Shown piece after piece: positions 5,106 through 62,129 of a DNA stretch of 64,000 nt. The position numbers and the translations under genes were made by a program. Each line of letters begins with the position of its first letter. The first letter of the stretch is position 1. The stretch is from a virus: positions 1 to 64,000 of IMG/VR virus record IMGVR_UViG_3300036942_000180. The stretch is one strand, 5' to 3'. Below the pieces are notes generated by a model. It ran no database searches and was not told where the DNA came from. It saw only the letters and a list, made by a program, of their open reading frames with translations.

Positions 5106-6125
5106 TTAAGAGTTCTTTACTTTAGCTTCCATTATTTTCTTCTTCAATTCTAATTTTTCCTCATCATCGAAATAGTCGTTTTCCATGAGATTCAGAATAA
5201 TATTTCTATTTATTTTTATTTTAATATCTTGTCTATCTTCTGCCCATGTTTTTTCATTCATTAAATTGCTTAAATTACTTATTAGATTATTTTTAATTCT
5301 TCCTTTTGTTCTAGCGTGGAACTTTTTATTAATTAATGTTTTTGATATATATTTTGAATAGAAATTAATCTTATCTTTATTAGAAAATAAATGATCAATA
5401 AACATAGAATTAGAATCATCAAAAGCACCAATAAAATCTTTTATAAAATTAGAATTATCAGTCATAAATTTATAGAATAAATTTATTAAAAAACTATCGC
5501 CAAATTTTATTTCATTTTTATTTAATTTATCTTCATATTTCATTAAAGCAGTAGAAATTAAATAGAAAGATGTTTTATTTATTTTTCTATCTTTAATTTC
5601 ATATCCATCTACTTCTCTATCATTATAACTTGATAATACTTCAGTATTAATTATACTATTATAAATTATTTCATTAACTTTATCAATATCAATAGTTTTA
5701 TCTCTATTATTGTTAGCTACTGTTAGTAACATATTTAAGTTTTTATTTATAGATACAAATGAAAGTTCATCTACTTCTTCCCATTCTGAAAAATAATCTT
5801 GAACGTATTTCTTTATGTCTTCTATATTATTAAAATTAAAAGTATCATCATTTAACATTTTAGGATCTTTAGTATTTAATAAATTAGTAAGTTTAAACTG
5901 TTTAATATCATCTACTATATTAAAAAATTTATTTACATCATTATAATATTCTTCTAAAAATTCAATTAATAAATTAACCTTAATATCTATTAGTTCGTGT
6001 CTTTCAAGAGTAACTTGTGATACTGTTCTTAATGGTCTTAATTCATTTGAAAACTTGGGAATATATTTCCCTCTGTCTTTCCTTTCCTTATTAGCTTCGT
6101 CGAATTCTTTTGACATTTTCATCAA
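5106..6125 (-). CDS. Hypothetical protein, paralog of 6126..6977, with C-terminal KKxxMExK tag
   Basis: Shares IIYxSIIN, INKTSF, LFYKF, YISKT blocks with its neighbour; ends KKKIMEAKVKNS. Confidence 0.75.
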   Translation of the reverse strand: MMKMSKEFDEANKERKDRGKYIPKFSNELRPLRTVSQVTLERHELIDIKVNLLIEFLEEYYNDVNKFFNIVDDIKQFKLTNLLNTKDPKMLNDDTFNFNNIEDIKKYVQDYFSEWEEVDELSFVSINKNLNMLLTVANNNRDKTIDIDKVNEIIYNSIINTEVLSSYNDREVDGYEIKDRKINKTSFYLISTALMKYEDKLNKNEIKFGDSFLINLFYKFMTDNSNFIKDFIGAFDDSNSMFIDHLFSNKDKINFYSKYISKTLINKKFHARTKGRIKNNLISNLSNLMNEKTWAEDRQDIKIKINRNIILNLMENDYFDDEEKLELKKKIMEAKVKNS

Positions 6126-6977
6126 TTATTCCTCCTTTAGTTTATTTTCCATTATTATTTTTTTAATACTACTTATTTCTTTATTACTATAAAAACTACC
6201 ATCATTTATTAAATTAGATACAATCTCTTTAAATATATATCGATAACTATTTATTTCATCAGATTCTAATAACTTTTTTAAATTATTTTTGATTCTTCTT
6301 ACTGTATTTCCATGAAAATCTTTCATTAAAATAGTTTTACTTATATATTTTATATAAAAATTCTCTAGTATATTTTTATCATCTAATCTAGAAATAAAAC
6401 CAATCTTATCATTTAAATTTTCTAATAAAGAAGAATCATCCATTATAAACTTATAGAATAAATCTAATAAAAATTCTTCTTTAAATTCGATGTTATCTTC
6501 ATCTAATCTATTTTCATATTGAGCTAATGCAAAAGAATTAATATGAAAAGAAGTTTTATTTATTTCTCTTATATAGTCTAAAAATGAAGAATTAATTATA
6601 CTTTTATATATTATTTGATTTATCTCATTAATATCTAGAGGGGTCTTATTGACATTCATAGCCATCCGAATTAATTCATTTAATAGATCAGCATCAGATA
6701 TGAATTCCTTAACTTCTTTTTCTTTATCCTGGTCTCTTAGATTATTAGTTACATATAATTCAAACTCTGGAATACTATTAATAATTATTCCTTGTTTGTT
6801 TATTTTATCGTAAAAATTCTTTCTATCAGTAGAAGAAATTTCTTCTAAATAATTAACTAATAACTTAGATCTTACACTAACTATTTCATTGATTTCAAAT
6901 CTCCACTGTTGGATCGTGTCAAGTTTAATTAAATTTTTAGAAAAATAATATAAATATTCACTTTTATCTTTTCCCAT
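6126..6977 (-). CDS. Hypothetical protein, paralog of 5106..6125, with C-terminal tag
   Basis: Ends IKKIIMENKLKEE. Confidence 0.75.
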   Translation of the reverse strand: MGKDKSEYLYYFSKNLIKLDTIQQWRFEINEIVSVRSKLLVNYLEEISSTDRKNFYDKINKQGIIINSIPEFELYVTNNLRDQDKEKEVKEFISDADLLNELIRMAMNVNKTPLDINEINQIIYKSIINSSFLDYIREINKTSFHINSFALAQYENRLDEDNIEFKEEFLLDLFYKFIMDDSSLLENLNDKIGFISRLDDKNILENFYIKYISKTILMKDFHGNTVRRIKNNLKKLLESDEINSYRYIFKEIVSNLINDGSFYSNKEISSIKKIIMENKLKEE

Positions 6978-6980
6978 TAA

Positions 6981-7112
6981 TTATTCCTCCCTTATAAAAT
7001 ATCCGACTATCATTAAAAGTAATATTATAATAATCCAAATCCACCAGTATTCGATGAACAACCTAAATTCAGCATACGATTGCATTTTTATCAATTCAAT
7101 GAATCTTTCCAT
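6981..7112 (-). CDS. Small membrane peptide (43 aa, not in ORF track)
   Basis: GGAGAGG SD; MERFIELIKMQSYAEFRLFIEYWWIWIIIILLLMIVGYFIREE. Confidence 0.6.
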   Translation of the reverse strand: MERFIELIKMQSYAEFRLFIEYWWIWIIIILLLMIVGYFIREE

Positions 7113-7125
7113 TTAATACCTCTCC

Positions 7126-7653
7126 TTATAAAGTGTATATTTCATTTCTGACAGTTTCTATTTCTTCAAGGGTTAGAGTCATCTCTTCTTTTTCTCCCTC
7201 ATCGTTTGTCTTATATAAAGTGACTGTCTCATTGTAGTTTTTCTTTCCTTTGAGGTTCCTATTCACTATTATGATCTCTTCCTCTCTGATTTCTTTAAGT
7301 TTATCGATACTTTTAGGGTGGAATAGAGGAAGAGGTCTTTTATCAGTATCTTTCCCATATAGATTGGAATTATATCTGGCAATCCTCATGAAATCCTTAG
7401 AAGTATTAGTATTATCTTGATCATTCATTATTATATTGTGATTCAATTCATTCTTAAATTCACACATTATTTTATATGACTTGTACATGTCTGAAGATAT
7501 CCTATCCCAATCTAATTCATCCATAAAATGGTAGCAGAGCTTAATTATTTCTTCATCGTTGAAATCATTATTGAATATAGCATTTTCTAAATCAGCATCT
7601 CCTCTTGCTAGTTTAACTTCCATTAAGAGTTTTTTCATCTTTTTACTGCTCAT
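7126..7653 (-). CDS. Trp-repeat family member with divergent C-terminus; N-terminal tag
   Basis: First ~50 aa near-identical to 7670..8314 and 8335..8928. Confidence 0.75.
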   Translation of the reverse strand: MSSKKMKKLLMEVKLARGDADLENAIFNNDFNDEEIIKLCYHFMDELDWDRISSDMYKSYKIMCEFKNELNHNIIMNDQDNTNTSKDFMRIARYNSNLYGKDTDKRPLPLFHPKSIDKLKEIREEEIIIVNRNLKGKKNYNETVTLYKTNDEGEKEEMTLTLEEIETVRNEIYTL

Positions 7654-7669
7654 TAATTACCTCCCTTAA

Positions 7670-8314
7670 TTAAATTGTATCTTCAAAATCTAATTTATCT
7701 TTAAATTCCTTTATGAATTCTTCAGATAAATTTTGATTATAATATATCTCCAACCAATCCAGTTTGTCTTTAAATTCTCTCATGAATTCTTCTGATAGGT
7801 TTTGACTACGGGATATACCAGTCCAGTCTAATTTATCTTTGAATTCTCTTATGAACTTTTCCGATAATTTTTGATTGTATGATATCTCTCCCCAATCTAC
7901 TTTATCTTTAAATTCCTTTATAAACCTTTCTGATAAATTTTTGTAAACAGATATCTCCCTCCAATCTACTTTATCTTTAAACTCTCTTATGAAACTTTCT
8001 GATATTTTTTGATTATATGATAATCTATACCAATCTAATTTATCTTTGAATTTTCTCATAAATTTTTCCGATAACTTTTGCTTATGAGATAGCGTTTTCC
8101 AATCTAGTTTATCTTTAAATTCTTTCATAAAATCTTCTGACAATTTTTTATAATATGCTATCTTATGCCAATCTAATTCATTCATAAAATGATGACACAG
8201 CTCAATTATTTCTTCATCACTAAAATCATTATTAAAGATAGCATTTTCTAAATCAGTATCTCCTCTTGCTAGTTTAACTTCCATTAAGAGTTTTTTCATT
8301 TTTTTACTACTCAT
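7670..8314 (-). CDS. Tryptophan-repeat (22-aa LSExFIREFKDKLDW) solenoid protein; N-terminal tag
   Basis: About 7 tandem 22-aa repeats. Confidence 0.85.
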   Translation of the reverse strand: MSSKKMKKLLMEVKLARGDTDLENAIFNNDFSDEEIIELCHHFMNELDWHKIAYYKKLSEDFMKEFKDKLDWKTLSHKQKLSEKFMRKFKDKLDWYRLSYNQKISESFIREFKDKVDWREISVYKNLSERFIKEFKDKVDWGEISYNQKLSEKFIREFKDKLDWTGISRSQNLSEEFMREFKDKLDWLEIYYNQNLSEEFIKEFKDKLDFEDTI

Positions 8315-8334
8315 TAGTTAATTACCTCCTTTAA

Positions 8335-8928
8335 TTAAATCATATTTTTTAAACCGAATTTATCTCTAAATTCTTTAATAAAATTCCTTGATAGATCTTG
8401 TTCATAATATATTTCCTTCCAATCTACTTTATCTTTAAATTCCCTTATGAACTCCTCCGATAATTCTTGACTGTATGATATTCCTGTCCAATCTACTTTA
8501 TCCTCAAACTCCCTTATGAAATTTTCTGAGAGTTTTTGATTATATGATATTCCCTCCCAATTTAACTCATCTTTAAATTCTCTTATGAAATCTTCTGATA
8601 ATTTTTGATTGTACGAAATTTCATCCCAATTTAACTCATCTTTAAATTCTCTTATGAAATCTTCTGATAATTTTTGATTGTACGAAATTTCATCCCAATT
8701 TAACCAATTTAATTTATCTTTAAATTCTCTTATGAAATCTTCTGATAATTTTTGATTGTACGAAATTTCATCCCAATTTAACCAATCTAATTCATCCATA
8801 AAATGGTAGCAAAGCTTGATTATTTCTTCATCACTAAAATCGTTATTAAAGATAGCATTTTCTAAATCAGTATCTCCTCTTGCTAGTTTAACTTCCATTA
8901 TGAGTTTCTTTATTTCTTTACTCTTCAT
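8335..8928 (-). CDS. Tryptophan-repeat solenoid protein; N-terminal tag
   Basis: About 6 repeats, several identical at DNA level. Confidence 0.85.
   Translation of the reverse strand: MKSKEIKKLIMEVKLARGDTDLENAIFNNDFSDEEIIKLCYHFMDELDWLNWDEISYNQKLSEDFIREFKDKLNWLNWDEISYNQKLSEDFIREFKDELNWDEISYNQKLSEDFIREFKDELNWEGISYNQKLSENFIREFEDKVDWTGISYSQELSEEFIREFKDKVDWKEIYYEQDLSRNFIKEFRDKFGLKNMI
8555..8790. repeat. Near-exact 66/75-nt coding tandem repeats
   Basis: Unit TCTTTAAATTCTCTTATGAAATCTTCTGATAATTTTTGATTGTACGAAATTTCATCCCAATTTAAC occurs three times. Confidence 0.85.
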
Positions 8929-10175: not shown

Positions 10176-10514
10176 TTATATTTTACTGATAGCTGTTTTT
10201 ATCTCATCTTCGAATTCATCTTCAAACTCATTTAAAAAATCAAGCGATAATGCTTGATACTGTACGATATATTTTAAAACTAATTTATCTTTAAATCTTC
10301 TGATGAACCTCTCTGAAAGATACCCATTAATTGATAATTCATTCCAATCTAATTCATCCTCAAAATAGTCACACAAGAAAATCTTCTCTTCTTCATTAAA
10401 CCTTTTCCCTTTGGACGTTTCATAGAAAATTTCGAATTGTAATTTCCGTTCATCGTAATCATTCATCTTTACCTCTAATATAAATTTCTTCAATTTATTA
10501 TTCACTATAACCAC
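10176..10514 (-). CDS. Short Trp-repeat protein; N-terminal tag
   Basis: LKKFILEVKM at N-terminus; ELDW...LSERFIRRFKDKL repeat. Confidence 0.7.
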   Translation of the reverse strand: MVIVNNKLKKFILEVKMNDYDERKLQFEIFYETSKGKRFNEEEKIFLCDYFEDELDWNELSINGYLSERFIRRFKDKLVLKYIVQYQALSLDFLNEFEDEFEDEIKTAISKI

Positions 10515-10516
10515 TC

Positions 10517-11107
10517 CTATTCTTTATAAAGTTCTACACAATCTTCTATCGGAATAACGTCTGGCATGTATTTATTCCCTATCAAAAATGGAGAATTTGT
10601 GACAATGAATAACTTTTCAATCTTTCCAGTATCGAACATGCAACCTATCAGGTTTCTAAGGGTAGATATGTGAAGACTCCTTTCTGGGCAATCTATGATT
10701 ACTATTTTATCTTCCCTTTCATCCATTATATTTCCAAAGAAATTTAGAAGTTGCTCGATTCCAGAGCTGATCATCATTCCTTGGTCGATATAGTTAAATT
10801 TCAAATAATTACTGATATCGATATCCATCTTTTTTAGAAAATTATTATTCATTCTTTCTTCCATCAGTAATTTCTTGATCGATTCTTTGGAAGCTGTGAA
10901 TCTCCTGTCGTGAGGGAAATATAGTACATTATTTCCTCTACCTTCAAAATAATCTTTAACCATTTCTAATACTTTTGTCTTTCCTGTCCCATTTTCTCCA
11001 GTTAATATAATCAACTCACTGTCTAATGGAAAATGAACTGGATGCTCATCGAATAGTTCTCCTAGATATTTCATTATTATCCTCCTTTTAAAATATAATG
11101 AAACCAT
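10517..11107 (-). CDS. ABC/AAA_21-like ATPase
   Basis: Walker A GENGTGKT, SSG signature, IIDCPERSLH, VTNSP; internal KKLLMEERM. Confidence 0.75.
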   Translation of the reverse strand: MVSLYFKRRIIMKYLGELFDEHPVHFPLDSELIILTGENGTGKTKVLEMVKDYFEGRGNNVLYFPHDRRFTASKESIKKLLMEERMNNNFLKKMDIDISNYLKFNYIDQGMMISSGIEQLLNFFGNIMDEREDKIVIIDCPERSLHISTLRNLIGCMFDTGKIEKLFIVTNSPFLIGNKYMPDVIPIEDCVELYKE

Positions 11108-14727: not shown

Positions 14728-15450
14728 TTATATTCCCTCTTTTTTAGAGTTTAGTCTCTTCTCCATTATATATCTTTTGAGTTTCATAGGATGATTTTCT
14801 TCCAAGATTGTAATGCTTGTATATAGCAATCTGTATAACTCCTTCAAATCTTCTTGACTGGTGAGCTCTTTTTTATTATTGTAATCCTTATCCATGATTA
14901 TTATATATTGATCGTTTAGATTGCTATCAGTCGTTAAATATTCATTTTCATTAATCTTTATAACCTCAAATTCATTGTTGAGGAAATGAAATAGAATGTC
15001 TACTATATCACCGAAAGCTTTCTTTAATTTTTTTCTCTTACTATCTATCACTCCAAGGATATTGATATCTGGAATACATTTTGTTATTTCTTTGAATTCA
15101 AGTTCATATCTCTCGTCATCGTCTTTGAAGAAATTAGTAAAAGGATTCAATTGACTTAAAACTTGATTCAGTATATTGATGTTGTATTCATCGTTATTAC
15201 TAACTTTAAATACAAATTCATCTATATCATCTTCCACATTCTTAATTATAAACCTATCATTCCTAAATATTAAATCATATTTAATACTTCTACCCAAAGA
15301 ATTTTTATTCATGGCATTATTAGCTATTGATTTCCAATTAATTCTATTTGGGTATATTTCGTGTAGCTCTACCAAACCTATTATGAATGATTCGTATTGC
15401 TCTTTAAATTCTTTAAATGATTTCTTTAATTTTCTTTTGGGTGTGAGCAT
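14728..15450 (-). CDS. Hypothetical protein with C-terminal tag
   Basis: LKRYIMEKRL near C-terminus. Confidence 0.7.
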   Translation of the reverse strand: MLTPKRKLKKSFKEFKEQYESFIIGLVELHEIYPNRINWKSIANNAMNKNSLGRSIKYDLIFRNDRFIIKNVEDDIDEFVFKVSNNDEYNINILNQVLSQLNPFTNFFKDDDERYELEFKEITKCIPDINILGVIDSKRKKLKKAFGDIVDILFHFLNNEFEVIKINENEYLTTDSNLNDQYIIIMDKDYNNKKELTSQEDLKELYRLLYTSITILEENHPMKLKRYIMEKRLNSKKEGI

Positions 15451-15810
15451 TTAATCACCTTCTTCTAATTTCATTTCCATTAATATTTTCTTTAATCCCT
15501 TCATATCAGTATCTTCAATGCATTTAATGGTATCTATCATAGTACTTTCAAATTTTTCTGGATCTAACGAATGTAGATAACTGTTATATTCATGAATTTC
15601 TCCTTTATCTACTACTAATAGATTTTTACCTTCTAATTTAATATGAGTATATTCCTCATATGAATAAGAACCGATATTTAATATACTTTTTTCTTTTAAT
15701 AATAAATATTTTCTTATTATTTCCATTGCATCATTCATATATTTATCATAATCATTAACAACATGTATTAATTTATTAGATAATTTAGCCGTACACACAA
15801 GTTTCACCAT
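15451..15810 (-). CDS. Hypothetical protein with C-terminal tag
   Basis: LKKILMEMKLEEGD. Confidence 0.7.
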   Translation of the reverse strand: MVKLVCTAKLSNKLIHVVNDYDKYMNDAMEIIRKYLLLKEKSILNIGSYSYEEYTHIKLEGKNLLVVDKGEIHEYNSYLHSLDPEKFESTMIDTIKCIEDTDMKGLKKILMEMKLEEGD

Positions 15811-16795: not shown

Positions 16796-17218
16796 TTATT
16801 CCTCCCATATATTATAATTTTTCCTAAATGATAATACTATTTTAGACCACTCATTTTCATCATCTATACCTTCAGGATTCAAATCAACTTCTAATAAGAA
16901 TCTTTTAAATTTAACTCTAAGGTCACTATCTTTAATATTCATATTTAGATTAATGATAAAAAGATCACTTTTATAAAAATAATACATTATTTTTTCAAGA
17001 ACTATTACTCTATAAAGTTCCTCATTAATTTTTATGAATAATTTTTCTTTTTCAAATTTCATACTATCTATTACATCATGTTCTTTAATATCTTCCTCTT
17101 CTAATAAATAACTGTTATTCATGATAGCTCTAGAGTTCTTAAGTATATATAAAAAATCTCCACTTATAAAATTATGCTTCTTTCCATCTATTAAATTTAA
17201 TTTCTCCATAATATACAA
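16796..17218 (-). CDS. Hypothetical protein with weak tag variant
   Basis: FKRFLLEVDL. Confidence 0.6.
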   Translation of the reverse strand: MYIMEKLNLIDGKKHNFISGDFLYILKNSRAIMNNSYLLEEEDIKEHDVIDSMKFEKEKLFIKINEELYRVIVLEKIMYYFYKSDLFIINLNMNIKDSDLRVKFKRFLLEVDLNPEGIDDENEWSKIVLSFRKNYNIWEE

Positions 17219-17457: not shown

Positions 17458-17988
17458 CTATTCTATTTTTAATTCCATCAAGAATTTCTTACCTCTTTTA
17501 CCCTTATAATCAAACACTATTGAAAAATTATTTAATTCTAATATCAAATTATTTTTTCCGTTCACATTATCTGTATACATTTTGTGATAAGTTTTTTCTT
17601 TTATTAGTTCTTTTAAAAAATCTAATTCAGAGTCAGTTAAATTATCAATAAAGTAAAGAGCATAATTAGTTCCTACTTCATCTGGTTCTTTCACTAACTC
17701 GAAATATTGATAGAAGAATTGCTCTTCATCAGGTATATAAATATTTTTAGGATCAGATTCATGACCATAGTAATTTAAGTTAACTTCTTTCATTAAAACA
17801 AATACTTTCCAATAATCATTTATAGTATTATAACTATCTCCTCTTATTTCATAACCAGAAAGAAACTCTATATAATGCTCTTTTAAAAAAGTGCTCGGTT
17901 TATATTCTTCTTCAGTAAATATTCCATACAAATCATTAGGGATATTATAAATTAAGCTTCCTTTTTTAATATATCCTAAGTTTTTCAT
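17458..17988 (-). CDS. Hypothetical protein with C-terminal tag
   Basis: Ends GKKFLMELKIE. Confidence 0.7.
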   Translation of the reverse strand: MKNLGYIKKGSLIYNIPNDLYGIFTEEEYKPSTFLKEHYIEFLSGYEIRGDSYNTINDYWKVFVLMKEVNLNYYGHESDPKNIYIPDEEQFFYQYFELVKEPDEVGTNYALYFIDNLTDSELDFLKELIKEKTYHKMYTDNVNGKNNLILELNNFSIVFDYKGKRGKKFLMELKIE

Positions 17989-18172: not shown

Positions 18173-18568
18173 TTATCCCTCCAATTTAATTTCCATTAAT
18201 ATTTTCTTTAATTTATTTTTATATTCATTACCGTCTTTTAGTAAATCAAAAGAAATTATATGATTATGCCAGTACAAGCAATTTTCCAATGTTTTGATTT
18301 TGTACTCCTCGTATATAGGGCTTAGATTGAGTTTTCTATTTTTCACTTCTATCTCTACGGATGGTTGTTTTCTAATATATAAGTATTTATTACCATCTTT
18401 CACTATATTATTTTCATATAATTCCCTTAAATCTTTAGTCTCGTACAACCTTACGTATCTGAATTGCGAATTATTTTCAGGATGATACATAACTTCTTCT
18501 ATCACGAAGGCAGTACTCCAGTCTATCCCATTCGATCTAGCTTCTTTTATTCTATTTATTTCCAGCAT
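18173..18568 (-). CDS. Hypothetical protein with C-terminal tag
   Basis: Ends LKKILMEIKLEG. Confidence 0.7.
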   Translation of the reverse strand: MLEINRIKEARSNGIDWSTAFVIEEVMYHPENNSQFRYVRLYETKDLRELYENNIVKDGNKYLYIRKQPSVEIEVKNRKLNLSPIYEEYKIKTLENCLYWHNHIISFDLLKDGNEYKNKLKKILMEIKLEG

Positions 18569-18976: not shown

Positions 18977-19252
18977 TCATTCCTCCTCATTCAATTTATA
19001 TTCCAAGATTTCTTTTTTTATTATATTTTTAAACTCATTTAATACTTCTTTCAATTCTTCTTTTGTATATATGTCTTTTTCTTTTTCTCTTTTATAATAA
19101 TCATCTGTCAGCATTTTATCAATACTAAGTTGGATGCTACTCAATTCAATAATGGAAATTGAAAATGTTAGATAATCATAAATTAAGTCAATATCAATAA
19201 AGATATTATTATATGATCTAAAATGGTGTTTATTGATAGTAATTTCCTTCAC
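18977..19252 (-). CDS. Hypothetical protein with C-terminal tag
   Basis: IKKEILEYKLNEEE. Confidence 0.6.
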   Translation of the reverse strand: MKEITINKHHFRSYNNIFIDIDLIYDYLTFSISIIELSSIQLSIDKMLTDDYYKREKEKDIYTKEELKEVLNEFKNIIKKEILEYKLNEEE

Positions 19253-23248: not shown

Positions 23249-23581
23249 TTATTTTTCTCTTAATTTACTTTCCATCTCAAATTTCTTAAGATCATTCTCA
23301 CTTAAATCTAGCTTTTTTATTATTTTTAAATATACTTCATATACAGCTAATAATGGTAGGTTTTTATATCTTTTATTAGCAAAATATAATCCACCTCTTG
23401 TATATAGGATTAATGTTTTTACATAATAACTATCTTCTATTAATATAGAATTTTCTAAAGAATAAATATATTTTTGATTAGTTTCTTGTTCCCCATGTTT
23501 TACTATAATACTTGATATAATATGTTTTATTTTTTCTCTGTCCTTATTATAATCCGTTAAATTAGAATATACTTTTTCCAT
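23249..23581 (-). CDS. Hypothetical protein with C-terminal tag
   Basis: LKKFEMESKLREK. Confidence 0.7.
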   Translation of the reverse strand: MEKVYSNLTDYNKDREKIKHIISSIIVKHGEQETNQKYIYSLENSILIEDSYYVKTLILYTRGGLYFANKRYKNLPLLAVYEVYLKIIKKLDLSENDLKKFEMESKLREK

Positions 23582-24250: not shown

Positions 24251-24508
24251 TTAATAATTCTCTAAAAGCGTATCCATAAGTATACCAGCTTCGTCATCTG
24301 AAAGGGTTATTCCTTTACCAGGTCTCTCAGGCTCTTTTTCATCTCTGTTATCCCAATCTTCATGTTTCCAAGATCTAATATCAAAAGCAGGATCAGAACT
24401 AGTTCCCCACTTTACTAGTGATATCATTTTACCCCATCCTTTACCACTCTTAGGTTTTGATAGAACCGCTAAAACTTCAATTATTTCATAATTATATTTT
24501 TTTCCCAT
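24251..24508 (-). CDS. YdbC/PC4-like ssDNA-binding protein
   Basis: YEIIEVLAVLS..GW.K..LVKW....DIRSW...GKGITLS. Confidence 0.85.
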   Translation of the reverse strand: MGKKYNYEIIEVLAVLSKPKSGKGWGKMISLVKWGTSSDPAFDIRSWKHEDWDNRDEKEPERPGKGITLSDDEAGILMDTLLENY

Positions 24509-26907: not shown

Positions 26908-27848
26908 TATAACACTCCTTTCTTTAACTTTCTTTCCATTCTTATTTTTTGAACTTTAGGTTTGTGTTTGGTACTTAATAAAAAATTTTCTAATTCCTTT
27001 ACTGTATTGGGTATGTGTTTTTCTTTTATAGCGTTATATCCAAATCCACCACTTAAATTTTCAGTATTATAAATAGCAAAAGGTTTTTTAATATTCTTCC
27101 ATTTCATTATTCCACCTTTATTCTCTTTATCTTCTATTAATAATCTAATAAAGTAATCTCCTTTAAAAGAATGAGGAAGTTTAGTCGACAATTCAAAACT
27201 TTCTAATTCAGTGAGTATAAAAACTTCCTTATCACTTAAAATATCATAATTTCTAATAGGTAAATATAAAACAGAATATTTTTCTCCTTCTAATACTTGA
27301 TTTTTTTCTGCTTGGGTTTCTTCCATTAAATCAGCTACATAAAAATCTTCATTAGTCTTTAGTTTATTTATTAACCCATCAACTTCTTTTTCTTCATAAA
27401 TAAACTTTGTATTATATTCGTTTCTAACAACTGGTCTAACTATCTTATAATCATTATAAGACCAGGGAGATTTTAATTGTCCTTCTTCATCGAACTTTAT
27501 CTTTCCATCTATTTTCTTACCGTTCCAAAATAGTATATTACTTTCTATGATGAATTCACGATCATTTACTATATTTATTTCTAATCTATTAGTTTCTATG
27601 TTACCAGCGTATACATGGGCATCTTCTTTTAGAAACGGTCCATTCTTAGCTCTTTCACTCCCTAAATGTAAGATATTCAGATATGTTAAATAATTCTTAT
27701 AGACTATATCAGTGAAATTATCATAATTTATTTCTGTTTTAAACCAATTCATCTCGGGTATTATGAATCTATTAGCTTTTTCTAATTCTAAATTAGTCAA
27801 TCTTTGAACTTCTTTGTCGTATGGTTCATAGGCTTGATTTAATTTCAA
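26907..27848 (-). CDS. Hypothetical protein with C-terminal tag
   Basis: VQKIRMERKLKK. Confidence 0.7.
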   Translation of the reverse strand: MKLNQAYEPYDKEVQRLTNLELEKANRFIIPEMNWFKTEINYDNFTDIVYKNYLTYLNILHLGSERAKNGPFLKEDAHVYAGNIETNRLEINIVNDREFIIESNILFWNGKKIDGKIKFDEEGQLKSPWSYNDYKIVRPVVRNEYNTKFIYEEKEVDGLINKLKTNEDFYVADLMEETQAEKNQVLEGEKYSVLYLPIRNYDILSDKEVFILTELESFELSTKLPHSFKGDYFIRLLIEDKENKGGIMKWKNIKKPFAIYNTENLSGGFGYNAIKEKHIPNTVKELENFLLSTKHKPKVQKIRMERKLKKGVL

Positions 27849-29223: not shown

Positions 29224-29655
29224 TTATTTTCCTCCTAGTTTGAATTCTAACTGTTTCTTCTTCATCAATCTTATGATCGATTGGTAGTCCCTGTTCCACT
29301 TATTTACAATGTAATCTCTAGTTGCTATATAGAGGTAGTGTCTTCTTATTTTCATTTCACCTTTCTCCATTGCCATGTTTAACCCGAAATCCCTCTCGAA
29401 AAAGAAAGTGATGTAATCATCCTTAAAGTTCAGCCATTCTCTTTCTTCATAGCATTTGGGGTCTCTGATCATCTTCTTGAATTCTAAATTCTCTTCATTC
29501 TCTATCAATCTTAATAAGTAAGTATCGTCTATTAGAATCCCATGGTCTTCTGTTAGTAATTCATATCCTTCCTCTAATTCTTCTTCATTATCTTTTATCT
29601 TAGGAATGAGATAAGAAAGAGCCTTCTTAACTTGATCTTTATGATTATCCATCAA
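29224..29655 (-). CDS. Hypothetical protein with C-terminal tag
   Basis: MKKKQLEFKLGGK. Confidence 0.7.
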   Translation of the reverse strand: MMDNHKDQVKKALSYLIPKIKDNEEELEEGYELLTEDHGILIDDTYLLRLIENEENLEFKKMIRDPKCYEEREWLNFKDDYITFFFERDFGLNMAMEKGEMKIRRHYLYIATRDYIVNKWNRDYQSIIRLMKKKQLEFKLGGK

Positions 29656-29656: not shown

Positions 29657-30250
29657 TCAATCCTTTCCTAACCTTTCTTCCATTCTAATTTTCTTTCTTT
29701 GGTTTTTTCTATCTTTAAAGAACTCTTGGGTTTCTTCAGAGAATTCAGATATATCAAAATTATTATTTCTTTTAAATCTTAATATATCGTATCTTTTATT
29801 AGATGATACAAAATTATTATAACTAATTTTAGGATTAGTCCTTATTATAAACTTATCTAAAAATGATTTTTCTTTAAAGTGATAACATTTCTTAGTACAT
29901 ATTTTAACTTTTTTATGACATAAAAATTGATAGGATTCATCATCAGGAAATTTATTATGAATAGGATGATATCTATAACAAGTATTATATCGACAATTAG
30001 TTACACTTTTATCTAATAAGTAATCATAGATTTCTTCACTTATATCATTATAATCTATTTTAGAGGTTTTATAATCCCAATGAAGATGTTCAAGATTTTT
30101 ATTTCTTATTTGGTTAGTAGTTCCTCCAATTCTCATTTTACCATTTTGTAATTCTTCTTCTATTGTTTGAGAGAATTCAATAATAAATACAATACCTATA
30201 ACTAAAGGACGTAATAACAGATAAAATATAACTCTTAACCATTCAGGCAT
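29657..30250 (-). CDS. Membrane-anchored Cys-cluster protein with C-terminal tag
   Basis: YDYL..C..N.C...C..K..CT.KC shared with 30828; RKKIRMEERL. Confidence 0.7.
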   Translation of the reverse strand: MPEWLRVIFYLLLRPLVIGIVFIIEFSQTIEEELQNGKMRIGGTTNQIRNKNLEHLHWDYKTSKIDYNDISEEIYDYLLDKSVTNCRYNTCYRYHPIHNKFPDDESYQFLCHKKVKICTKKCYHFKEKSFLDKFIIRTNPKISYNNFVSSNKRYDILRFKRNNNFDISEFSEETQEFFKDRKNQRKKIRMEERLGKD

Positions 30251-30798
30251 TATATTTCACCTATCTTTTTATATTTGAAGTCTTTTGGTTGGTTCATAGA
30301 AATTTCCATTACCATTCTTTTTAATCTATTGCTTTGATATTCATCTTTATATCGGACGATCGGTATCACAGTCAATGGGAATTCAGTTAACCTAAGTATC
30401 AAATCATGGCTAAATACATCAGATATTTTATCTGTATCTTCCAATGAAAAATATTCTCCAGAGCCTTCTCCCATTCTCAAGCCAGAATTCAAGTACTTAA
30501 ACATCAACAGAAATTCGTTCTTGTAATTGATTAAAACTAAAAATTCTTCTTTGAATATGTCACTGACTATCGATCTTATGGTTTTTGGATCAGAATGTTG
30601 TTTATTATAATATTCTAGTTCTTTTTCAATGATGTTTAGGTAAGAATTCAATCTTGAACTGTTATTCTCCTCGAGGATTATGATCTTACCACTATAGTTC
30701 CTTAGTGATTTTTCTTTATCAATGTAATTATTAATTAATTCTTCTATATCTTCGCTAGGAAATTTCACTTTGTTAATATAATCTTCATTTTTTTCCAA
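30250..30798 (-). CDS. Hypothetical protein with near-C-terminal tag
   Basis: LKRMVMEISM. Confidence 0.65.
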   Translation of the reverse strand: MEKNEDYINKVKFPSEDIEELINNYIDKEKSLRNYSGKIIILEENNSSRLNSYLNIIEKELEYYNKQHSDPKTIRSIVSDIFKEEFLVLINYKNEFLLMFKYLNSGLRMGEGSGEYFSLEDTDKISDVFSHDLILRLTEFPLTVIPIVRYKDEYQSNRLKRMVMEISMNQPKDFKYKKIGEI

Positions 30799-30827: not shown

Positions 30828-31454
30828 TCACCTTCTCTTTAGCTTATTCTCCATTTTTATTCTTTTTAATATATTTTTTATCTCTTTATTTTTTATATTC
30901 TTAATATTGAATTCATATTTTACATCAATTACTGTAGTGCGGAAAAAATCGTTATCAATATTTATATCATTTGAATAATTTAATATGTTTCTTTGAATTA
31001 GATTTTTCCTTTTATATTTATCACATTTACCAGTGCAAACAACTTCTTTTTCTTTACAATAAAATTTTACAGGAATAATAACTTCATCATACGTAAATGG
31101 ATAAATACACATTCTATTTAAACAGACTCCGTTGTGAACGCAGTCAATTTTACTATTTTCTTGTAGATAATCATATAATTTATTAGAATCTTTTTTCCTG
31201 ATATTAAAATTTCTATCATTTCTTAATATAGTATCATCTACTTTATTTTGAAAATTGTGTTTGAGATATAAATAAATTATTATTAATGAAGTTAGGCTAG
31301 TAATAGAATGAACTAGTACATCAATCATAAAAATATTAGTGTTTGTTTTAATACTAATATCTGAAATAATAAAAATTAGACTAGTTAATCCCAATAAACT
31401 AATTGCACCAATTGAAAGTTTAAATGATGAAAATGTATGTTTTTTAATTATCAT
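30828..31454 (-). CDS. Membrane-anchored Cys-cluster protein with C-terminal tag
   Basis: Paralog of 29657; LKRIKMENKLKRR. Confidence 0.7.
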   Translation of the reverse strand: MIIKKHTFSSFKLSIGAISLLGLTSLIFIISDISIKTNTNIFMIDVLVHSITSLTSLIIIYLYLKHNFQNKVDDTILRNDRNFNIRKKDSNKLYDYLQENSKIDCVHNGVCLNRMCIYPFTYDEVIIPVKFYCKEKEVVCTGKCDKYKRKNLIQRNILNYSNDINIDNDFFRTTVIDVKYEFNIKNIKNKEIKNILKRIKMENKLKRR

Positions 31455-33067: not shown

Positions 33068-33478
33068 CTATTTCCCTCCTAGTTTGAACTCCATATTTAG
33101 TTTTTTAAGCTTCTTCTTATAGTTATCCTTGTTGAATTTGAAGAAAGTTTCCTTATAATCATTTATTCTATACGACATGAAATTGATATCTAATTTCTCG
33201 AAACAACTGTTGATTAAATTATTAAAAGCCTCTATTGATACTATTTTATCGTAATTCAATTTTGAAGGACTGCTAAGATAATATTCAAACTGTTCTTCAA
33301 TTATTAGTTTATTATCTTTTCCTCTCCCTTTTAACATCATACTCTTATCATTATATAATCTAAATTTTACCCATTTTCCTCTTTTAGTATCGACTATTAA
33401 CTTTTTATTTCCGTATCCTGGAAATCTTTCCTCGCTATACTTACTAATAATATAATTTAACTCTTTATCATCATTCAT
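33068..33478 (-). CDS. Hypothetical protein with C-terminal tag
   Basis: FKFNKDNYKKKLKKLNMEFKL. Confidence 0.7.
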   Translation of the reverse strand: MNDDKELNYIISKYSEERFPGYGNKKLIVDTKRGKWVKFRLYNDKSMMLKGRGKDNKLIIEEQFEYYLSSPSKLNYDKIVSIEAFNNLINSCFEKLDINFMSYRINDYKETFFKFNKDNYKKKLKKLNMEFKLGGK

Positions 33479-33933
33479 TAGTATTCTCCTTTCATTTTAA
33501 TCTCCATGACTAATTTCTTTATTTTATTTTTATAATCACTTCTATTAAATTTAAATTGAGATGTTCCTTTTTCATTATAAAGTTCATATATTATATATTC
33601 TAAATCAGTAAAATTAAAGAAACCGTATATTAATTCTTTAAAAGCTTCTGGATCAATTATTAATTCGTAATGGAGATCTAAGTTTTTAGGTGTGTATTTT
33701 TCTGAAAATTCAGTTATAATTAGTTCATTTACTTTCATTTTATAAGTAGCATATATTAAATCACTATAACCGACCATTATTCTTAATTTACACCAAGATC
33801 CACTACTTATATCAGTAACGACTGTGGGATTTGAATAATCTCTTAATGTCTTATTTTTATATTTATTAAAAAGATATTTCATTTGATTTCGGATAACTTT
33901 ATCTTTCTTAGTTAATTCATCACTCAACTTCAA
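33478..33933 (-). CDS. Hypothetical protein, paralog of 33068, with C-terminal tag
   Basis: FKFNRSDYKNKIKKLVMEIKM. Confidence 0.7.
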   Translation of the reverse strand: MKLSDELTKKDKVIRNQMKYLFNKYKNKTLRDYSNPTVVTDISSGSWCKLRIMVGYSDLIYATYKMKVNELIITEFSEKYTPKNLDLHYELIIDPEAFKELIYGFFNFTDLEYIIYELYNEKGTSQFKFNRSDYKNKIKKLVMEIKMKGEY

Positions 33934-36227: not shown

Positions 36228-36623
36228 CTATTTATGTTTTAATTTGAACTCCATGTCGAATTTCTTAGTATCATTCGAATTAAATCTCAGCTTATTATGA
36301 TATTTTGTTCTCCTATCGATTAATACATCATAATTAATGAAATGTTCCTCAATGTAGTCAACAATGTCTTTTATCATATAGTTGTAAATAGAAGGATATG
36401 AGCTATAGACCACTATATCTTCTGAAAATTGATCCTTGATCACCATATACTTGTATTCGATGTTGATCCTCATCAATATTAGATGATTTTTAGATTTTAA
36501 CTTGACTCTGAAGATGTAGTTATCTTCGTTATTGATGGAGAGGATGTCGTAGCTCATGACTGTCAGGCGTCTTAGAATATCTATTATTTTTTCTTCTATT
36601 GATTTTCTAGTCATTATTATCAC
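36228..36623 (-). CDS. Hypothetical protein with C-terminal tag
   Basis: TKKFDMEFKLKHK. Confidence 0.7.
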   Translation of the reverse strand: MIIMTRKSIEEKIIDILRRLTVMSYDILSINNEDNYIFRVKLKSKNHLILMRINIEYKYMVIKDQFSEDIVVYSSYPSIYNYMIKDIVDYIEEHFINYDVLIDRRTKYHNKLRFNSNDTKKFDMEFKLKHK

Positions 36624-53662: not shown

Positions 53663-56257
53663 TTAATTCTTATTAGTTCTTTCATGACCTATTTCTCTTT
53701 TTTCTTTGTTTTTAAGAGTTCTAGGTAAAGCTAATCCACCTTGAAGGAGATCAGTATTGATTCCTGCAGCAGTCATATAAGCATCTATAACGTTCAATGT
53801 TTGCTTATCTTCAATATCGCTTTCTAATTCTCCTAGATTGGCGTAGCCTTCAAGAGATATTTTTTGCTCCATTTGCATTTTTTGCTTAGAGTCATCAGAT
53901 CGTGGTCCAAGGGCTTCTTTAAGGAACTTATCTGCACCCATAGCCACTAGACTTTCCATCTCTGGCTTGGTGATCGTTTATATTCATATAGATTCGCTAA
54001 TATCTATACAGTTCTCTTATGAACTTCTATATGTTTCCATATAGACTAGACTATATCTTCACTTCTTTCGAAGTGTCTCCTGTTTCGAGTATCAATAACT
54101 TATACTCTACTCCCTTTCGAGATAGTCGTTGAACATCTTATATTTAATTCAATATTTTTTCTTCTAGTATTTTTTCTATATTTTCTTTTTCCCAATAAGG
54201 AATTCTAATTAATTTTATATTATTTTCATTACAAAAAATATTTTTTATTTCATCATTTTCTTTTTGTTTTTTAAATCTTTCTATTCCACCAAAATAATCT
54301 ATAGGTTGATAATGTTGTATTCCATCATATTCTAATAAAATAAAATCATCATCTGTTTCTATTTTAAAATCAAAAGGAAGATAGTTAATATTTTTACATT
54401 TTTCAATAACAAATTCATTTTCAAATTCTATATTTTTATCTTTCAACCAATTATGAATTATTTTTTCTCCTTTAGAAGCCTTACATTTAGGACATCTAGT
54501 TCCTTCTAAAAAATGTAATGGTCGAACTGAATATTCATATCCACATTCTTCTATATCGTGTTTCATTATTACATTAGTATTATTATTAATATATTTACTT
54601 AATAATATATAATCATTTCCTTCTAATTCATATATTTCCTGTTTAAATTCTTCAGTAGTTTTTCTTTCATTTCCAAAACACTTTGGACAACGTTGTCCAT
54701 TATCTAAAAAATTATGTGGATTCATTTTAAATTCATGTCCACAACTTTCTATATTATGTTTAATTAATATTTTATCTTTATTATCTTTACCATATTCAGT
54801 TAATGGAATATATCTATTACCAACTAATTTTTTCATTTCCCATTTAAATTGTTTATTTGATTTACCTTGTTTAAATTTTATATTATATTTTTTAATTTTA
54901 TTATAAATAGTTTTATAACTACAATTAAAATATTTACTGCATTCTTTTCTATTTAAAAATTTATCTTCTATTAATTCTTTTAGCTTTTTCCCATTATTCT
55001 TATCAATATCTTTGTAACTTCTTTCTTCATTCAATTCTTCTTCTGTTATTAAATCTAACATATTTTACCTCCGATAGTAATTTATTTCCGATTTATATAA
55101 TAAATAGGAAACGAGACTCGGATAATCTCGCTTTCGGGTATATTGCCCTATCCTATTAAATATTTGTTTTATATTAAATTAATTAATAAAATGATGCTGA
55201 TTGCCCATTGTAATATCTATAAGGATTTTTAAGCATATCACGCTTACTGATTAAGTTACGTTGTAGCTCTTATAGCTTTAGGGTGTTCCAGCAATTAAGG
55301 AGATTCTAACATGTATTTTAAATTAATACATGTCACGCTATTAAATAACGTGCAGCACGACTATCGCCAGTCACTTGATGAAACTTTTCATTGCGTTGCA
55401 TATTATCTTGGGTATAAGTATTCTTTTTCATTAATTTTCATATAGAATCGTTAATTCTATATCTGATTCAGCTATACGTTTCCATATAGATAAGACTATA
55501 TCTTCACTAATTAAAGTGCTTCCTATTTCTACTATAAACTATAGTATACTATTAGTCGTTGGATGTTCTTATTATTAAAATATAATAAGATTCACTGCTA
55601 ATTACCATTTAAGGTTTCAAGCAATTAAGGAAATTTTACTTGAGCAAAATAGTTCACTCAATACCTGTTGTAATCTTTTCAAATGTAAATCGTGTTTTTT
55701 ATATAGAATCATTAATTCTATACCATATAGCTATACGTTTCCATATAGACAAGATTATATCTTTACTAATCAATATAGCATTCTCTGTTTCTATTGGATT
55801 TCCAATATACTAATAATCGTTGGATGTTCTTATTATTAAAATATAATAAGATTCACTGCTTATTATCTAATCAAAGACTTTCAAGCAATTAAGAGAATTT
55901 TAATTGGGCTATTTACGTGATTAACCCAACTGGAACTTTAGTTCTACTTCTAATCTCATTCCCGTCTTTATCAGGGTAATAGATATATTCTTCTAGCTCT
56001 ATATCAAGTATGTCTGCCGCTTTCTTAACGCCTTCCATATCAAGTTCTTTTTCAAATGGCTCCGTCTCAAGATAGAAATTCTCACTATCATCTTCCAGAA
56101 AATCACTCAACCATTCGTCAAACTCCTTATTAGTGCTCATCTCTTCAAACTTATCCTTATATTTATCCTTATTATCACCTGAAGGGTCTAGTGTTTTCAT
56201 AACATCATATACTAGGTTTTCTATTCTTTCTCTCTTATCAGTCGAAATTCCTGCCAT
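53663..56257 (-). CDS. Second RNA polymerase beta C-terminal fragment (probably virion RNAP), 4 exons: 56257-55924, 55690-55656, 55428-55348, 53974-53663 (253 aa)
   Basis: Spliced VPVG|YLHLKRLQQVLS|KKN..QVTGDSRAAR|ITKPEMESLVAMGA parallels beta VGYMYMLKL..R..Q..GG.RFGEME..L.AYGA. Confidence 0.85.
53975..55347 (-). mobile_element. Group I intron (1373 nt) with homing endonuclease
   Basis: CACGU/GCGUG P1; P, Q, R, S. Confidence 0.9.
54144..55061 (-). CDS. Intron-encoded Zn-ribbon/Vsr-like homing endonuclease
   Basis: SKGE, LPFDF, LEYDGIQH, LIRIPYW; N-terminus nearly identical to 24529..25932. Confidence 0.88.
   Translation of the reverse strand: MLDLITEEELNEERSYKDIDKNNGKKLKELIEDKFLNRKECSKYFNCSYKTIYNKIKKYNIKFKQGKSNKQFKWEMKKLVGNRYIPLTEYGKDNKDKILIKHNIESCGHEFKMNPHNFLDNGQRCPKCFGNERKTTEEFKQEIYELEGNDYILLSKYINNNTNVIMKHDIEECGYEYSVRPLHFLEGTRCPKCKASKGEKIIHNWLKDKNIEFENEFVIEKCKNINYLPFDFKIETDDDFILLEYDGIQHYQPIDYFGGIERFKKQKENDEIKNIFCNENNIKLIRIPYWEKENIEKILEEKILN
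55429..55655 (-). ncRNA. Group I intron (ORF-less, 227 nt)
   Basis: UUGAGU/GCUCAA P1; R and S elements. Confidence 0.88.
55691..55923 (-). ncRNA. Group I intron (ORF-less, 233 nt)
   Basis: GUUGGGU/GCCCAAU P1; compensatory P7 variant (CGAUUA/UAAUC). Confidence 0.88.
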
Positions 56258-60417: not shown

Positions 60418-60610
60418 CTTTATTCCTCCCCATCAATTATTTCTTTAATATTGTGATAGATGTTATCAGTAGAATCCTTAATACCTTCAAAATAAGAGTA
60501 ATCATCACTTTCATAACTCACATCATCTAATTTACTGTTCTCCTTTTTCTTTTCTAAAAATTCCAATATTTTCTCTAATTTTTCTTTATCATTCATTTAT
60601 TAAACCTCCT

Positions 60611-61270
60611 TTATTTATTTTCCATCTTATTTTCCATGAGTAATTTTTTATACTTAACTCCCACTCTTTCGTTTTCTGATTTATCAAATGTTTCTAAGAA
60701 ACCAAATATATCCAAGTATTCTCCATTTATATATCTTCTTATATGAGTTCCATCAGAATAATTAAGATTTACTTCTTCTTCAGTTTCTATCATATCGCAA
60801 TAAGGATTGTCACCATAAAGTTTATCTAAATCATGAAAATAAACTTCCCTATCTATATAATCATTAGTATTTCTTATTAACCTATTGATTGACAAACCAT
60901 GGGAGTTATATATAGCCTTTTCTAGTGAATCCCTAATGCTATCAAAAAGATCCTTCTTTTCCTCGCTCCATAGTGACTCTAAAGTTGTATAAAAACTTAC
61001 ACTAAATTCTTTTCTATATATAGTATTGATAAATTTATCATGTTCTAAAAATTTTTGAAGAGTGTATGATAAATAATCTTGGTTATCAATTAACTTATTT
61101 CTTTCTTTTTCATTCAATTTGTCTAAATAAACCATCCATTGCTCCATAAAATATTTAAAACCTTGATTCTCTTGATGCATATCAAATTCAAATATAGAAT
61201 CAATATATATTTTATAATACTTTAGAAAATTATCATCCTGATTTTCTAAATTGATTTCCATTTCTTTCAT
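60611..61270 (-). CDS. Hypothetical protein, paralog of 61455, with tag
   Basis: YKKLLMENKMENK. Confidence 0.75.
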   Translation of the reverse strand: MKEMEINLENQDDNFLKYYKIYIDSIFEFDMHQENQGFKYFMEQWMVYLDKLNEKERNKLIDNQDYLSYTLQKFLEHDKFINTIYRKEFSVSFYTTLESLWSEEKKDLFDSIRDSLEKAIYNSHGLSINRLIRNTNDYIDREVYFHDLDKLYGDNPYCDMIETEEEVNLNYSDGTHIRRYINGEYLDIFGFLETFDKSENERVGVKYKKLLMENKMENK

Positions 61271-61273
61271 AAA

Positions 61274-61453
61274 TTATTCATCTCCCTCTTCTTTTTCTAT
61301 TTCTACATTAATTATGGGTTCCGAATCTGAAACTGGGATTAGAAATAGCAACGCTAATAAGGACTTAACATCTTTTGTCAGATACAAAGCTACTAAAACA
61401 CATATGATTATTCCTATCGATATTATTATCTTGCTGGTTGAATTGTCATCCAT
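61274..61453 (-). CDS. Small membrane protein (59 aa, not in track)
   Basis: AAGGAG SD; two hydrophobic stretches. Confidence 0.55.
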   Translation of the reverse strand: MDDNSTSKIIISIGIIICVLVALYLTKDVKSLLALLFLIPVSDSEPIINVEIEKEEGDE

Positions 61454-61454
61454 G

Positions 61455-62129
61455 TTAATTCTCCTTTATTTTGTTTTCCATATTTTCTTTCTTGTAAGCA
61501 ATACCCACTCTTACCTCGTCAGATTCTTCAAACGCTTTAACTATTCCAAAGACATCGTAGTAGCTCCCATCCACCAATATCTTTTTGTAACTTTCATCCC
61601 TCCAACCCAAATTGACTATCTCCTCTTCATAATCACCTTCGTAGAAAGGATTTTTAACTATATATTGATAGTCGTAATAAGTTTCTTTTCCATTAAAATA
61701 TACTTGAGTGTTCCTAGCTATTCTTTTAGTAGCTGATAAGTGCATATTATAAAGCGACTTCTCCATATTATTTCTAATGACTTTTAATAGTTCCATCCTA
61801 TTATTTATTAATGATTCCATTTCTTCAGGGTAACTTTCATTATACCAACCTAAGCCATATCTTATCATTGATATAAACTCCCTATTCTCCATGATCTTCG
61901 ACATAGCCCAACTTAAGTAATCTGGATTATTTAATAATTTTTTTACTTGCTCATCAGTAATTCTATTTAAATATGCAATCATATGAGTAAGAAAATAGTC
62001 TGTTGCTTTATTATGTCTATTTCTATTGTCAATACACATTGCATCTATATATGCTTTAAATGATTTTAAGAAAGCATCATTAGAATTTAATTTAAACTCC
62101 ATTTCTTTTCTTTTTCTTTTACTAGGCAT
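61455..62129 (-). CDS. Hypothetical protein with tag at both termini
   Basis: RKRKEMEFKL at N-terminus; YKKENMENKI at C-terminus. Confidence 0.75.
   Translation of the reverse strand: MPSKRKRKEMEFKLNSNDAFLKSFKAYIDAMCIDNRNRHNKATDYFLTHMIAYLNRITDEQVKKLLNNPDYLSWAMSKIMENREFISMIRYGLGWYNESYPEEMESLINNRMELLKVIRNNMEKSLYNMHLSATKRIARNTQVYFNGKETYYDYQYIVKNPFYEGDYEEEIVNLGWRDESYKKILVDGSYYDVFGIVKAFEESDEVRVGIAYKKENMENKIKEN

Follow-up and report, generated by a model that had tools for sequence, protein, structure and literature searches.

Why should some forty proteins of one virus, most of them without recognisable relationship to each other, carry the same short peptide close to one of their ends? The question is raised by the window analysed here, a stretch of 64,000 nucleotides that makes up the first 64 kb of the 97,794-base IMG/VR record IMGVR_UViG_3300036942_000180, in which a nine-residue element with the core K-K-x-x-M-E-x-K-L (hereafter the tag) recurs on soluble, membrane, repeat and ATPase proteins. 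It is argued below that the tag is probably a portable docking helix, present on about a quarter of the proteins and read by one common partner that we infer. The structural and evolutionary parts of this interpretation are well supported by structure prediction and by comparison of the carriers. Judged by its genes, the source is an uncultured jumbo phage of a single AR9-like lineage. Every gene lies on the minus strand, as do all the features located below.

The tag was defined by the regular expression [KRQ][KR]xx[ML]Ex[KRS][LMIV], with which the whole record was scanned in six frames and a set of 162 open reading frame (ORF) products of the record was searched. The six-frame scan returns 25 matches in the window and 16 in the remaining record. 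All of these are encoded by the minus strand in frame with the genes, and the plus strand and both non-coding frames of the record yield no match; the copies listed by the sequence-only reading thus exist, all 25 being found in the frame of a long ORF. In the protein set there are 39 matches where 0.40 are expected (2000 residue shuffles, maximum 5), and 32 of them fall no more than 15 amino acids (aa) from the C-terminus, against 0.04 in residue shuffles and 0.06 when only the last 30 aa are shuffled. The enrichment over shuffles of about 100-fold is therefore concentrated at the termini, which is what the sequence-only reading had expected of a comparison with a shuffled background. A position matrix recovers 40 carriers among the 162 proteins (25%), with a bimodal distribution of scores: 33 C-terminal copies score 15 bits or more, and the range from 6 to 15 bits is empty. 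Freeing the positions one at a time leaves Glu at position 6 in 30 of 30 copies, and position 5 holds Met 26 times and Leu 4 times.

In their placement 33 copies sit 1–15 residues before the stop, five have their start near residue 7, and a few lie within the chain. The copies that had been described as C-terminal do lie near the chain end, but they are subterminal, with 1–15 and most often 3–5 residues following L9. Three residues separate the tag from the stop in g5106 (KKKIMEAKV, 5118..5144; 339 aa) and its paralogue g6126 (KKIIMENKL, 6138..6164; 283 aa), in g23249 (KKFEMESKL, 23261..23287, with the next Shine-Dalgarno sequence after the stop), g29224 (KKKQLEFKL, 29236..29262), g29657 (KKIRMEERL, 29669..29695, a protein with a transmembrane-like segment), g30828 (KRIKMENKL, 30840..30866), g33068 (KKLNMEFKL, 33080..33106), g36228 (KKFDMEFKL, 36240..36266) and g60611 (KKLLMENKM, 60623..60649). 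The distance is four residues in g15451 (KKILMEMKL, 15466..15492), g18977 (KKEILEYKL, 18992..19018) and the g33068 paralogue g33478 (KKLVMEIKM, 33493..33519), and five in g26907 (QKIRMERKL, 26925..26951; 313 aa). It is two in g18173 (KKILMEIKL, 18182..18208) and a single residue in g17458 (KKFLMELKI, 17464..17490), which is followed by a hairpin and a gap of 239 nucleotides (nt). In g14728 seven residues follow the tag (KRYIMEKRL, 14752..14778) and the next gene begins 70 nt downstream, behind a run of T, whereas the copy of g30250 (KRMVMEISM, 30295..30321), present as claimed, ends 14 residues before the stop and is hardly terminal. A C-terminal copy is also found in g61455 (KKENMENKI, 61467..61493), and the 72-aa tagged mini-gene g63980 (genome 63980–64198) reaches into the window with its 3' end (63980..64000), its tag KKHLMEEKL lying just outside at 64004–64030.

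The N-terminal copies start at about residues 6–9 behind clear Shine-Dalgarno sequences and start codons and are hence translated. They comprise KKLLMEVKL at residues 7–15 of g7126 (7609..7635) and again in g7670 (8270..8296), KKLIMEVKL in g8335 (8884..8910), KKFILEVKM in g10176 (10464..10490), which has a GTG start behind AGGAG, and KRKEMEFKL at residues 6–14 of g61455 (62088..62114), a protein that is consequently tagged at both ends. A degenerate copy, KEMEINL, occupies residues 2–8 of g60611 (61246..61267) and is conserved in the family of that protein. The internal copy KKLLMEERM occupies residues 78–86 of the 196 residues of the mini P-loop ATPase g10517 (10850..10876), and the copy KRFLLEVDL in g16796 (16880..16906) is weak, as had been supposed, at 12.9 bits. 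The operon at 52.5–59.3 kb had been described as free of the tag, which stands except for one doubtful internal match of 16 bits within it, QKMQMEQKI in g53663 (53858..53884).

Is the conserved entity a peptide or a stretch of nucleic acid? A ribosome-binding or translational coupling element, or a microhomology for the shuffling of cassettes, might be read in frame by accident, and this would fit the finding that the codons after C-terminal tags often contain the Shine-Dalgarno sequence of the next gene (GGAGG), or that this sequence stands behind the stop, and that the next start lies within 20 nt for 70% of the C-tagged genes vs 41% of other genes. Three non-paralogous pairs have 21–24 nt in common at the tag, and there is a mild excess of AAG at K1 (p = 0.006, uncorrected). 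Against this, the nucleotide pattern AARAARN6ATGGARN3AARNTN occurs 21 times in the record, always in frame 0; the remaining frames, the intergenic stretches and the opposite strand have none. K2, K8 and E6 draw on their synonymous codons at genome frequencies, and L9 is encoded by TTA, CTA, TTG, ATG, ATA and GTA (NTR with four first bases), so that the middle T alone is fixed; the observation that codons differ among copies is thereby borne out. The mean longest common DNA run between copies is 7.69 nt as compared with 7.60 nt in a control in which the codons of the same peptides were resampled. Furthermore, the tag also occurs at N-termini and at operon ends before terminators or long gaps (g17458, g14728, g5106, g65819, g66647, g68386), and the 30% of C-tagged genes that have no close downstream gene are in some cases followed by terminator-like hairpins. 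The conservation is thus not of the DNA-level, frame-independent kind, beside a downstream start, that a ribosome-binding or coupling element would show. The frame lock, the free synonymous sites and the control-level DNA identity together argue for selection on the protein rather than on an RNA, coupling or recombination element, as had been concluded from the letters, and a nucleic-acid signal is largely refuted and highly improbable.

A translated Shine-Dalgarno sequence of the next gene was considered separately and ruled out, since the Shine-Dalgarno sequence lies 3' of the tag, which is itself frame-locked and free in its codons. In related strains detected in sequencing runs there are 1555 differences from the record, and the 40 of them that are listed include 30849 C>T in the tag of g30828, a synonymous change of GAG to GAA at E6. 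Two pairs of adjacent genes with 21–24 nt in common at the tag belong to a tandem array at genome 81409–85484, where eight or nine ORFs of 110–210 aa, almost all tagged, stand behind one early promoter, which suggests local duplication or conversion.

If the peptide is what is selected, the tag could still be no more than the best conserved part of one or a few expanded families. For this the tag was cut out and the carriers were compared by phmmer with reversed-sequence decoys, upon which 26 of the 40 are singletons in the genome and the rest fall into six small families; the carriers, which range from 66 to 409 aa, are accordingly mostly unrelated by sequence, as had been proposed. Most have no Pfam match, no PHROG family was found for 18 of the 20 carriers scanned, these being all those with a C-terminal tag, and a transmembrane-like segment is present in two carriers as compared with 25 of the 122 other proteins. 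Informative exceptions are g7126, g7670 and g8335 (window 7126–8928), which belong to a family of 23-residue Trp repeats (W..IS..QKLSE.FIREFKDKV) that also includes g48826 (48826–49773). Homologues of g7670 number 1892, of which the best 120 all lack the tag, the family alignments begin after it, and the paralogue g48826 in the same genome is tagless. Whether homologues lack the tag had been put forward as a check, and the best 120 of this family do; these comparisons support the view that the tag has been added to one widespread family at least.

The Trp-repeat family itself occupies 30–37 places in each of the phages G, LPJP1 and BpSp, is modelled by AlphaFold2 as a regular helical-repeat solenoid (predicted local distance difference test score, pLDDT, 93) and matches the DarA_C domain of phage P1 at the level of the repeat.

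The ATPase g10517 (10517–11107) is reduced, in comparison with AAA_15/AAA_21 (OLD/ABC-like) ATPases, to their Walker-A part at the N-terminus and their C-terminal part, and its tag sits between these two halves, where the usual long insert would be. The g60611/g61455 family has copies at both ends which are conserved in P0001–P0003 and in the distant P0125, the C-terminal end of which reads ...YKRKLMEEKLKN; a profile search of 1.84 billion representatives with this family returned three clusters only, all of them tagged, and a word-index search of 5.8 billion proteins with g26907 returned the protein itself only. Three carrier orthologues encoded on L037, a metagenome contig of 3.7 kb from a related phage, are 36–57% identical and have kept the tag, beside a protein composed of a zincin-like peptidase and a vWA domain that is 84% identical. 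From the low body identity of the orthologues on L037, P0003 and P0125 it follows that the tag has been kept while the bodies diverge quickly. The alternative, that there is no common partner and that the carriers are strongly diverged paralogues from one or a few expanded families, with the helix as their most conserved structural element or as a self-associating or stabilising cap, can draw on the tandem arrays with some clear paralogue pairs, on the rapid evolution of these orphans, behind which homology could be hidden, and on some Trp-repeat homologues that start with a vaguely similar K-x-E-hydrophobic helix. It is nevertheless very unlikely, given a tag that may be N-terminal, C-terminal or internal on proteins of such different length, one of them a P-loop ATPase and others Trp-repeat proteins with tagless relatives, the on/off distribution with no intermediate forms, and conserved residues that lie on one exposed face and do not form a buried pattern.

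This face becomes apparent when the anatomy of the tag is considered. The extended consensus begins with N/K at –2 and a hydrophobic residue at 0, continues as K-K-hydrophobic-x-M-E-x-K-L and finishes with K/N/E/G, and is predicted to form a helix of 10–13 residues. The conserved K1, K2, M5, E6, K8 and L9 stand at i, i+1, i+4, i+5, i+7 and i+8 and would thus share one face of an α-helix, with Met and Leu in the middle and Lys and Glu flanking them, and the Asn that is frequent at –2 is consistent with a helix N-cap. AlphaFold2 places the N-terminal tag of g7670 in a helix at residues 3–16 (pLDDT 71–76 vs 97–98 for the repeat body) and that of g60611, near the C-terminus, within the final helix (residues 201–217), in agreement with the short helix that had been proposed. 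The 11 residues before C-terminal tags are more polar than in controls (0.66 vs 0.58, 3.6 standard deviations), as expected for a linker. The g60611 model has no match by Foldseek in the PDB, and the tag region finds only generic single-helix matches in the ESM Atlas. The tag has the same orientation near both ends of its carriers, which favours, as had been argued, a docking motif over a terminal degron. The favoured interpretation is therefore that of an autonomous short α-helix which, behind a polar linker, would be presented at either end of unrelated, fast-evolving early accessory proteins, and of which the conserved face would dock on a single common reader. The tag would in this manner place about a quarter of the phage proteins under one handling step, be it recruitment, processing or turnover.

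That the carriers are early proteins is suggested by their operons. The sequence ATATATTAT-N6-G, which can be extended to TTAAGTATATATTATTATAATGAAT, is found at fifteen intergenic sites of the coding strand; ten of them lie in the window (11145, 13120, 13971, 19948, 24247, 28485, 37170, 43254, 51362 and 52301) and five beyond it (genome 65706, 71087, 80210, 85567 and 93306). The early promoter consensus of Bacillus phage AR9 is AAATATATATTAT-(6N)-G and is read by a virion RNA polymerase which the phage injects (PMC5312081). The agreement of the fifteen sites with this consensus implies that this distant and uncultured relative has kept the promoter type, and the tagged genes sit in operons behind these AR9-type promoters. 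By contrast, and as had been noticed, the tag is missing from the conserved replication and structural genes, the portal block, the ligase, the polymerase pieces and RecA all being untagged, as are the RNA polymerase genes.

The relationship to AR9 is seen in the portal protein g1031, which is 34% identical to the portals of the Bacillus phages AR9 and PBS1 and has remoter matches in BpSp, Listeria phage LPJP1, Yersinia phage phiR1-37 and Staphylococcus phage S6. No close relative was found among 50,697 phage records or in scans of IMG/VR with the portal, the g60611 family and an alignment of the zincin-vWA protein, and a megablast of 20 kb against known phages gave short intron-like matches only. 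The nucleotide pattern given above has no occurrence in LPJP1, AR9, phiR1-37 and S6 and one in BpSp, as compared with the 21 found here. De novo enrichment of residue triplets at protein termini reaches 16-fold for the tag in this genome and at most 3.5–5.6-fold in the whole of LPJP1 or AR9, and the same analysis yields no terminal motif in AR9. By these sequence comparisons the tag is restricted to one lineage, and AR9, LPJP1, BpSp, phiR1-37 and S6 are without it. A separate C-terminal '...N-I' tag in LPJP1 was considered and rejected, as its triplets are enriched at most 5-fold and Ile as the last residue 1.6-fold.

What might the tag do for its carriers? No description of such a tag was found in the literature that could be searched, so that the statement that no equivalent has been described holds for the motif itself, but the principle is known from several systems. 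The closest phage precedent is the capsid targeting sequence (CTS) of phage T4, carried by IPI–III and Alt, which is, like the tag, a short peptide. It forms the only feature common to a diverse and fast-evolving set of accessory and counter-defence proteins, addresses them to one destination and can be transferred to foreign proteins (PMC3012670). In both peptides a Glu is a key residue, E6 being invariant here. In analogy to T4, the tagged proteins would be diverse counter-defence proteins that are loaded into the prohead, possibly cut after the Glu by the prohead protease, and injected together with the DNA at the next infection. This is an unlikely explanation with evidence on either side. 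The T-even internal proteins are indeed a diverse, defence-related set with the short targeting sequence as their only common feature, AR9-like phages package proteins including the virion RNA polymerase (PMC5312081), the Trp-repeat carriers have their repeat-level match in DarA_C of a head-internal protein of P1, and the N-terminal copies end in ...L-M-E at residue 11–12, much like the ten-residue, Glu-ended T4 peptide. On the other hand, the T4 peptide is N-terminal, in the first ten or so residues, is removed by the prohead protease and is found on a handful of late head proteins, whereas of about 40 copies here 33 are C-terminal and 5–7 N-terminal, the carriers lie behind early promoters and outside the late structural block, and about 25% of all genes far exceeds any known head-internal set. 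In the T4 cleavage context, L/I-x-E, the Glu has its invariant counterpart, but at the position three before the putative cut no more than about half of the copies have a hydrophobic residue (L, I or V).

Chimalliviruses import a subset of their own proteins into the phage nucleus by way of Imp1/PicA, and to that extent resemble a jumbo phage that labels a quarter of its proteins, but the imported proteins have no terminal signal (PMC13282480), whereas the signal here is a linear peptide, and it is missing from the replication proteins, which would be the ones to be imported.

In form the tag most resembles the encapsulation peptides of bacterial microcompartments (BMC). These peptides, for example those of PduP, PduD and EutC, are short amphipathic helices that are set off by a poorly conserved linker, occur at either terminus of unrelated cargo and bind one common docking structure. 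The predicted terminal helices and the polar linker of the tag correspond to this description, yet the tag is shorter, rich in Lys and Glu and built around an invariant Met-Glu pair (with the occasional Leu at position 5 mentioned above), and a search for BMC shell proteins (PF00936) in the 97.8-kb record, which represents about 38% of the genome, came back empty.

A terminal peptide could also time the turnover of its carriers, by binding an adaptor or unfoldase that delivers early proteins to an AAA+ protease of the host or the phage. ClpX is reported to recognise N-terminal as well as C-terminal motifs, the carriers are early accessory proteins with the tag near the chain end, where unfoldases engage, and the gene of a phage AAA+ ATPase adjoins that of a metallopeptidase. 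Such a role is nonetheless rather unlikely: ssrA-like ClpX degrons are unstructured and placed at the very end of the chain, whereas the tag is a structured, charged helix with 1–15 residues behind it and with N-terminal and internal copies, the 98 kb that represent about 38% of the genome encode neither ClpP nor a ClpX zinc-binding domain, and ATPases of the MoxR type, to which the phage enzyme belongs, are remodellers and not processive unfoldases.

This leaves the identity of the putative reader of the docking helix, for which the same ATPase and peptidase are the best candidates. The gene g62515 (62515..63990) encodes a fusion of a zincin-like metallopeptidase with a vWA domain (DUF2201_N and DUF2201), with an HExxH motif (HELYH at residue 108) and a DxSxS metal ion-dependent adhesion site (MIDAS; DTSGS at 360) that are both intact, and g64198 (genome 64198–65085) encodes a MoxR-type AAA+ ATPase (AAA_3/AAA_5). 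Between the two lies the tag-ended mini-gene g63980 of 72 aa, which overlaps both. The order is the same on contig L037, where the tagged mini-gene is 45% identical. Bacterial vWA-MoxR systems likewise couple a MoxR AAA+ ATPase, a zincin-like peptidase and a vWA protein to a small, fast-diverging precursor with a conserved C-terminal peptide, which is released, and their vWA domains have been proposed to capture the substrate peptide (Kaur et al. 2020, PMC7159879). A MoxR/peptidase-vWA pair has moreover been noted in jumbo phages and a role in assembly suggested (Iyer et al., PMC7824862). The neighbourhood of g64198, g63980 and g62515 is that of a vWA-MoxR unit, but the bacterial units are conflict systems with one precursor each (e.g. 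FxSxx-COOH), while about 40 other proteins share the peptide here. Likewise the peptide types of those units (FxSxx, RxD, acidic, FtsH-associated) are not that of the tag, and peptidase and vWA domain are fused in the phage.

The presence of the mini-gene in the operon of both tag-bearing genomes, the intact motifs, the invariant E6 and this bacterial precedent make the module of MoxR ATPase and zincin-vWA protein the best candidate, and it is put forward, tentatively and by analogy, as the most likely reader. Pfam scans of the untagged neighbours revealed radical SAM, PolB fragments and a nucleotidyltransferase, but no obvious peptide-binding hub. The mechanism that could be envisaged, though it must count as doubtful, is that the early module recognises the tag through its invariant Glu across the whole proteome, the MIDAS site of the vWA domain taking this Glu, and then remodels, clips or releases the carriers; the zincin domain could clip the tagged end, and the tagged mini-protein of the operon would act as cognate substrate or regulator of the module. 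A complex prediction for g62515 with the 72-aa mini-protein gave a score of 0.00 in a run with no controls and is evidence neither way. The 5' part of g64198 has apparently been split off by an intron.

Several points weigh against a docking helix with a common reader, and in particular against this one. The MoxR/zincin-vWA pair is also present in AR9, PBS1, BpSp and LPJP1, which are all tagless, and it is hence not specific to tag-bearing phages. In AR9 and BpSp the AAA+ and zincin-vWA genes are directly adjacent with no mini-gene between them, behind an early promoter in AR9, and in LPJP1 the region is fragmented, so that the link through the mini-gene amounts to two tag-bearing genomes vs two intact tagless operons. 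The record covers about 38% of the genome, which by this CheckV completeness would be some 250 kb long. The three non-paralogous pairs that share 21–24 nt indicate an occasional exchange of DNA between tags, and some carriers, being orphan proteins, may share a deep ancestry.

Should a docking helix with one reader nevertheless be what the tag is, it would mark a functional class among jumbo-phage genes that are otherwise orphans, and the cell biology of jumbo phages, where the known import has no terminal signal, would gain a linear signal for sorting or handling. It would also provide an experimental handle, with a single peptide for pull-downs, a tag that can be transplanted and one reader gene to delete, and could supply orthogonal tag-reader pairs for phage engineering. 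If the MoxR module were the reader, one switch would let the phage control all of its host-takeover and counter-defence proteins. The scale of the phenomenon, about 25% of genes, and its direct testability are what lend it considerable interest.

The surrounding genome has a G+C content of about 27%, and the same DNA is present in oil-field and shale-gas metagenomes. A radical SAM protein of 300 aa (window 9257–10159) is flanked by tagged genes, with no link to the tag found. Beyond the window the genome encodes a class II (B12-dependent) ribonucleotide reductase (genome 76179–79763; L004:14179–17763) that contains an intein with a LAGLIDADG endonuclease domain, and an anaerobic NrdD at genome 72496–74415.

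The genome is rich in group I and group II introns and in HNH homing endonucleases. A complete group II intron lies in the recA region (window 45656–48362) and consists of a reverse transcriptase/maturase ORF of 630 aa (45760–47652) with Rfam matches to D1–D4 (48151–48362) and D5–D6 (45656–45740). Introns of this kind are uncommon in lytic phages. Among the group I introns, five compact ones score high enough to pass the Rfam gathering threshold (37480–37676, 40340–40555, 40991–41228, 55472–55665 and 55731–55933), and intron-like sequence is also found 5' of g11161, g39593, g40517, g53663 and g64198. Five paralogous HNH homing endonucleases (phrog_559) are encoded at window positions 24529–25932, 38308–39426, 44084–45022 and 54144–55061 and at genome 91366–92769. 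The copy at 24529–25932 is absent from related strains in two sequencing runs, whose contigs join position 24418 to 25907 with 64 other letters between them, and it is thus mobile within the population.

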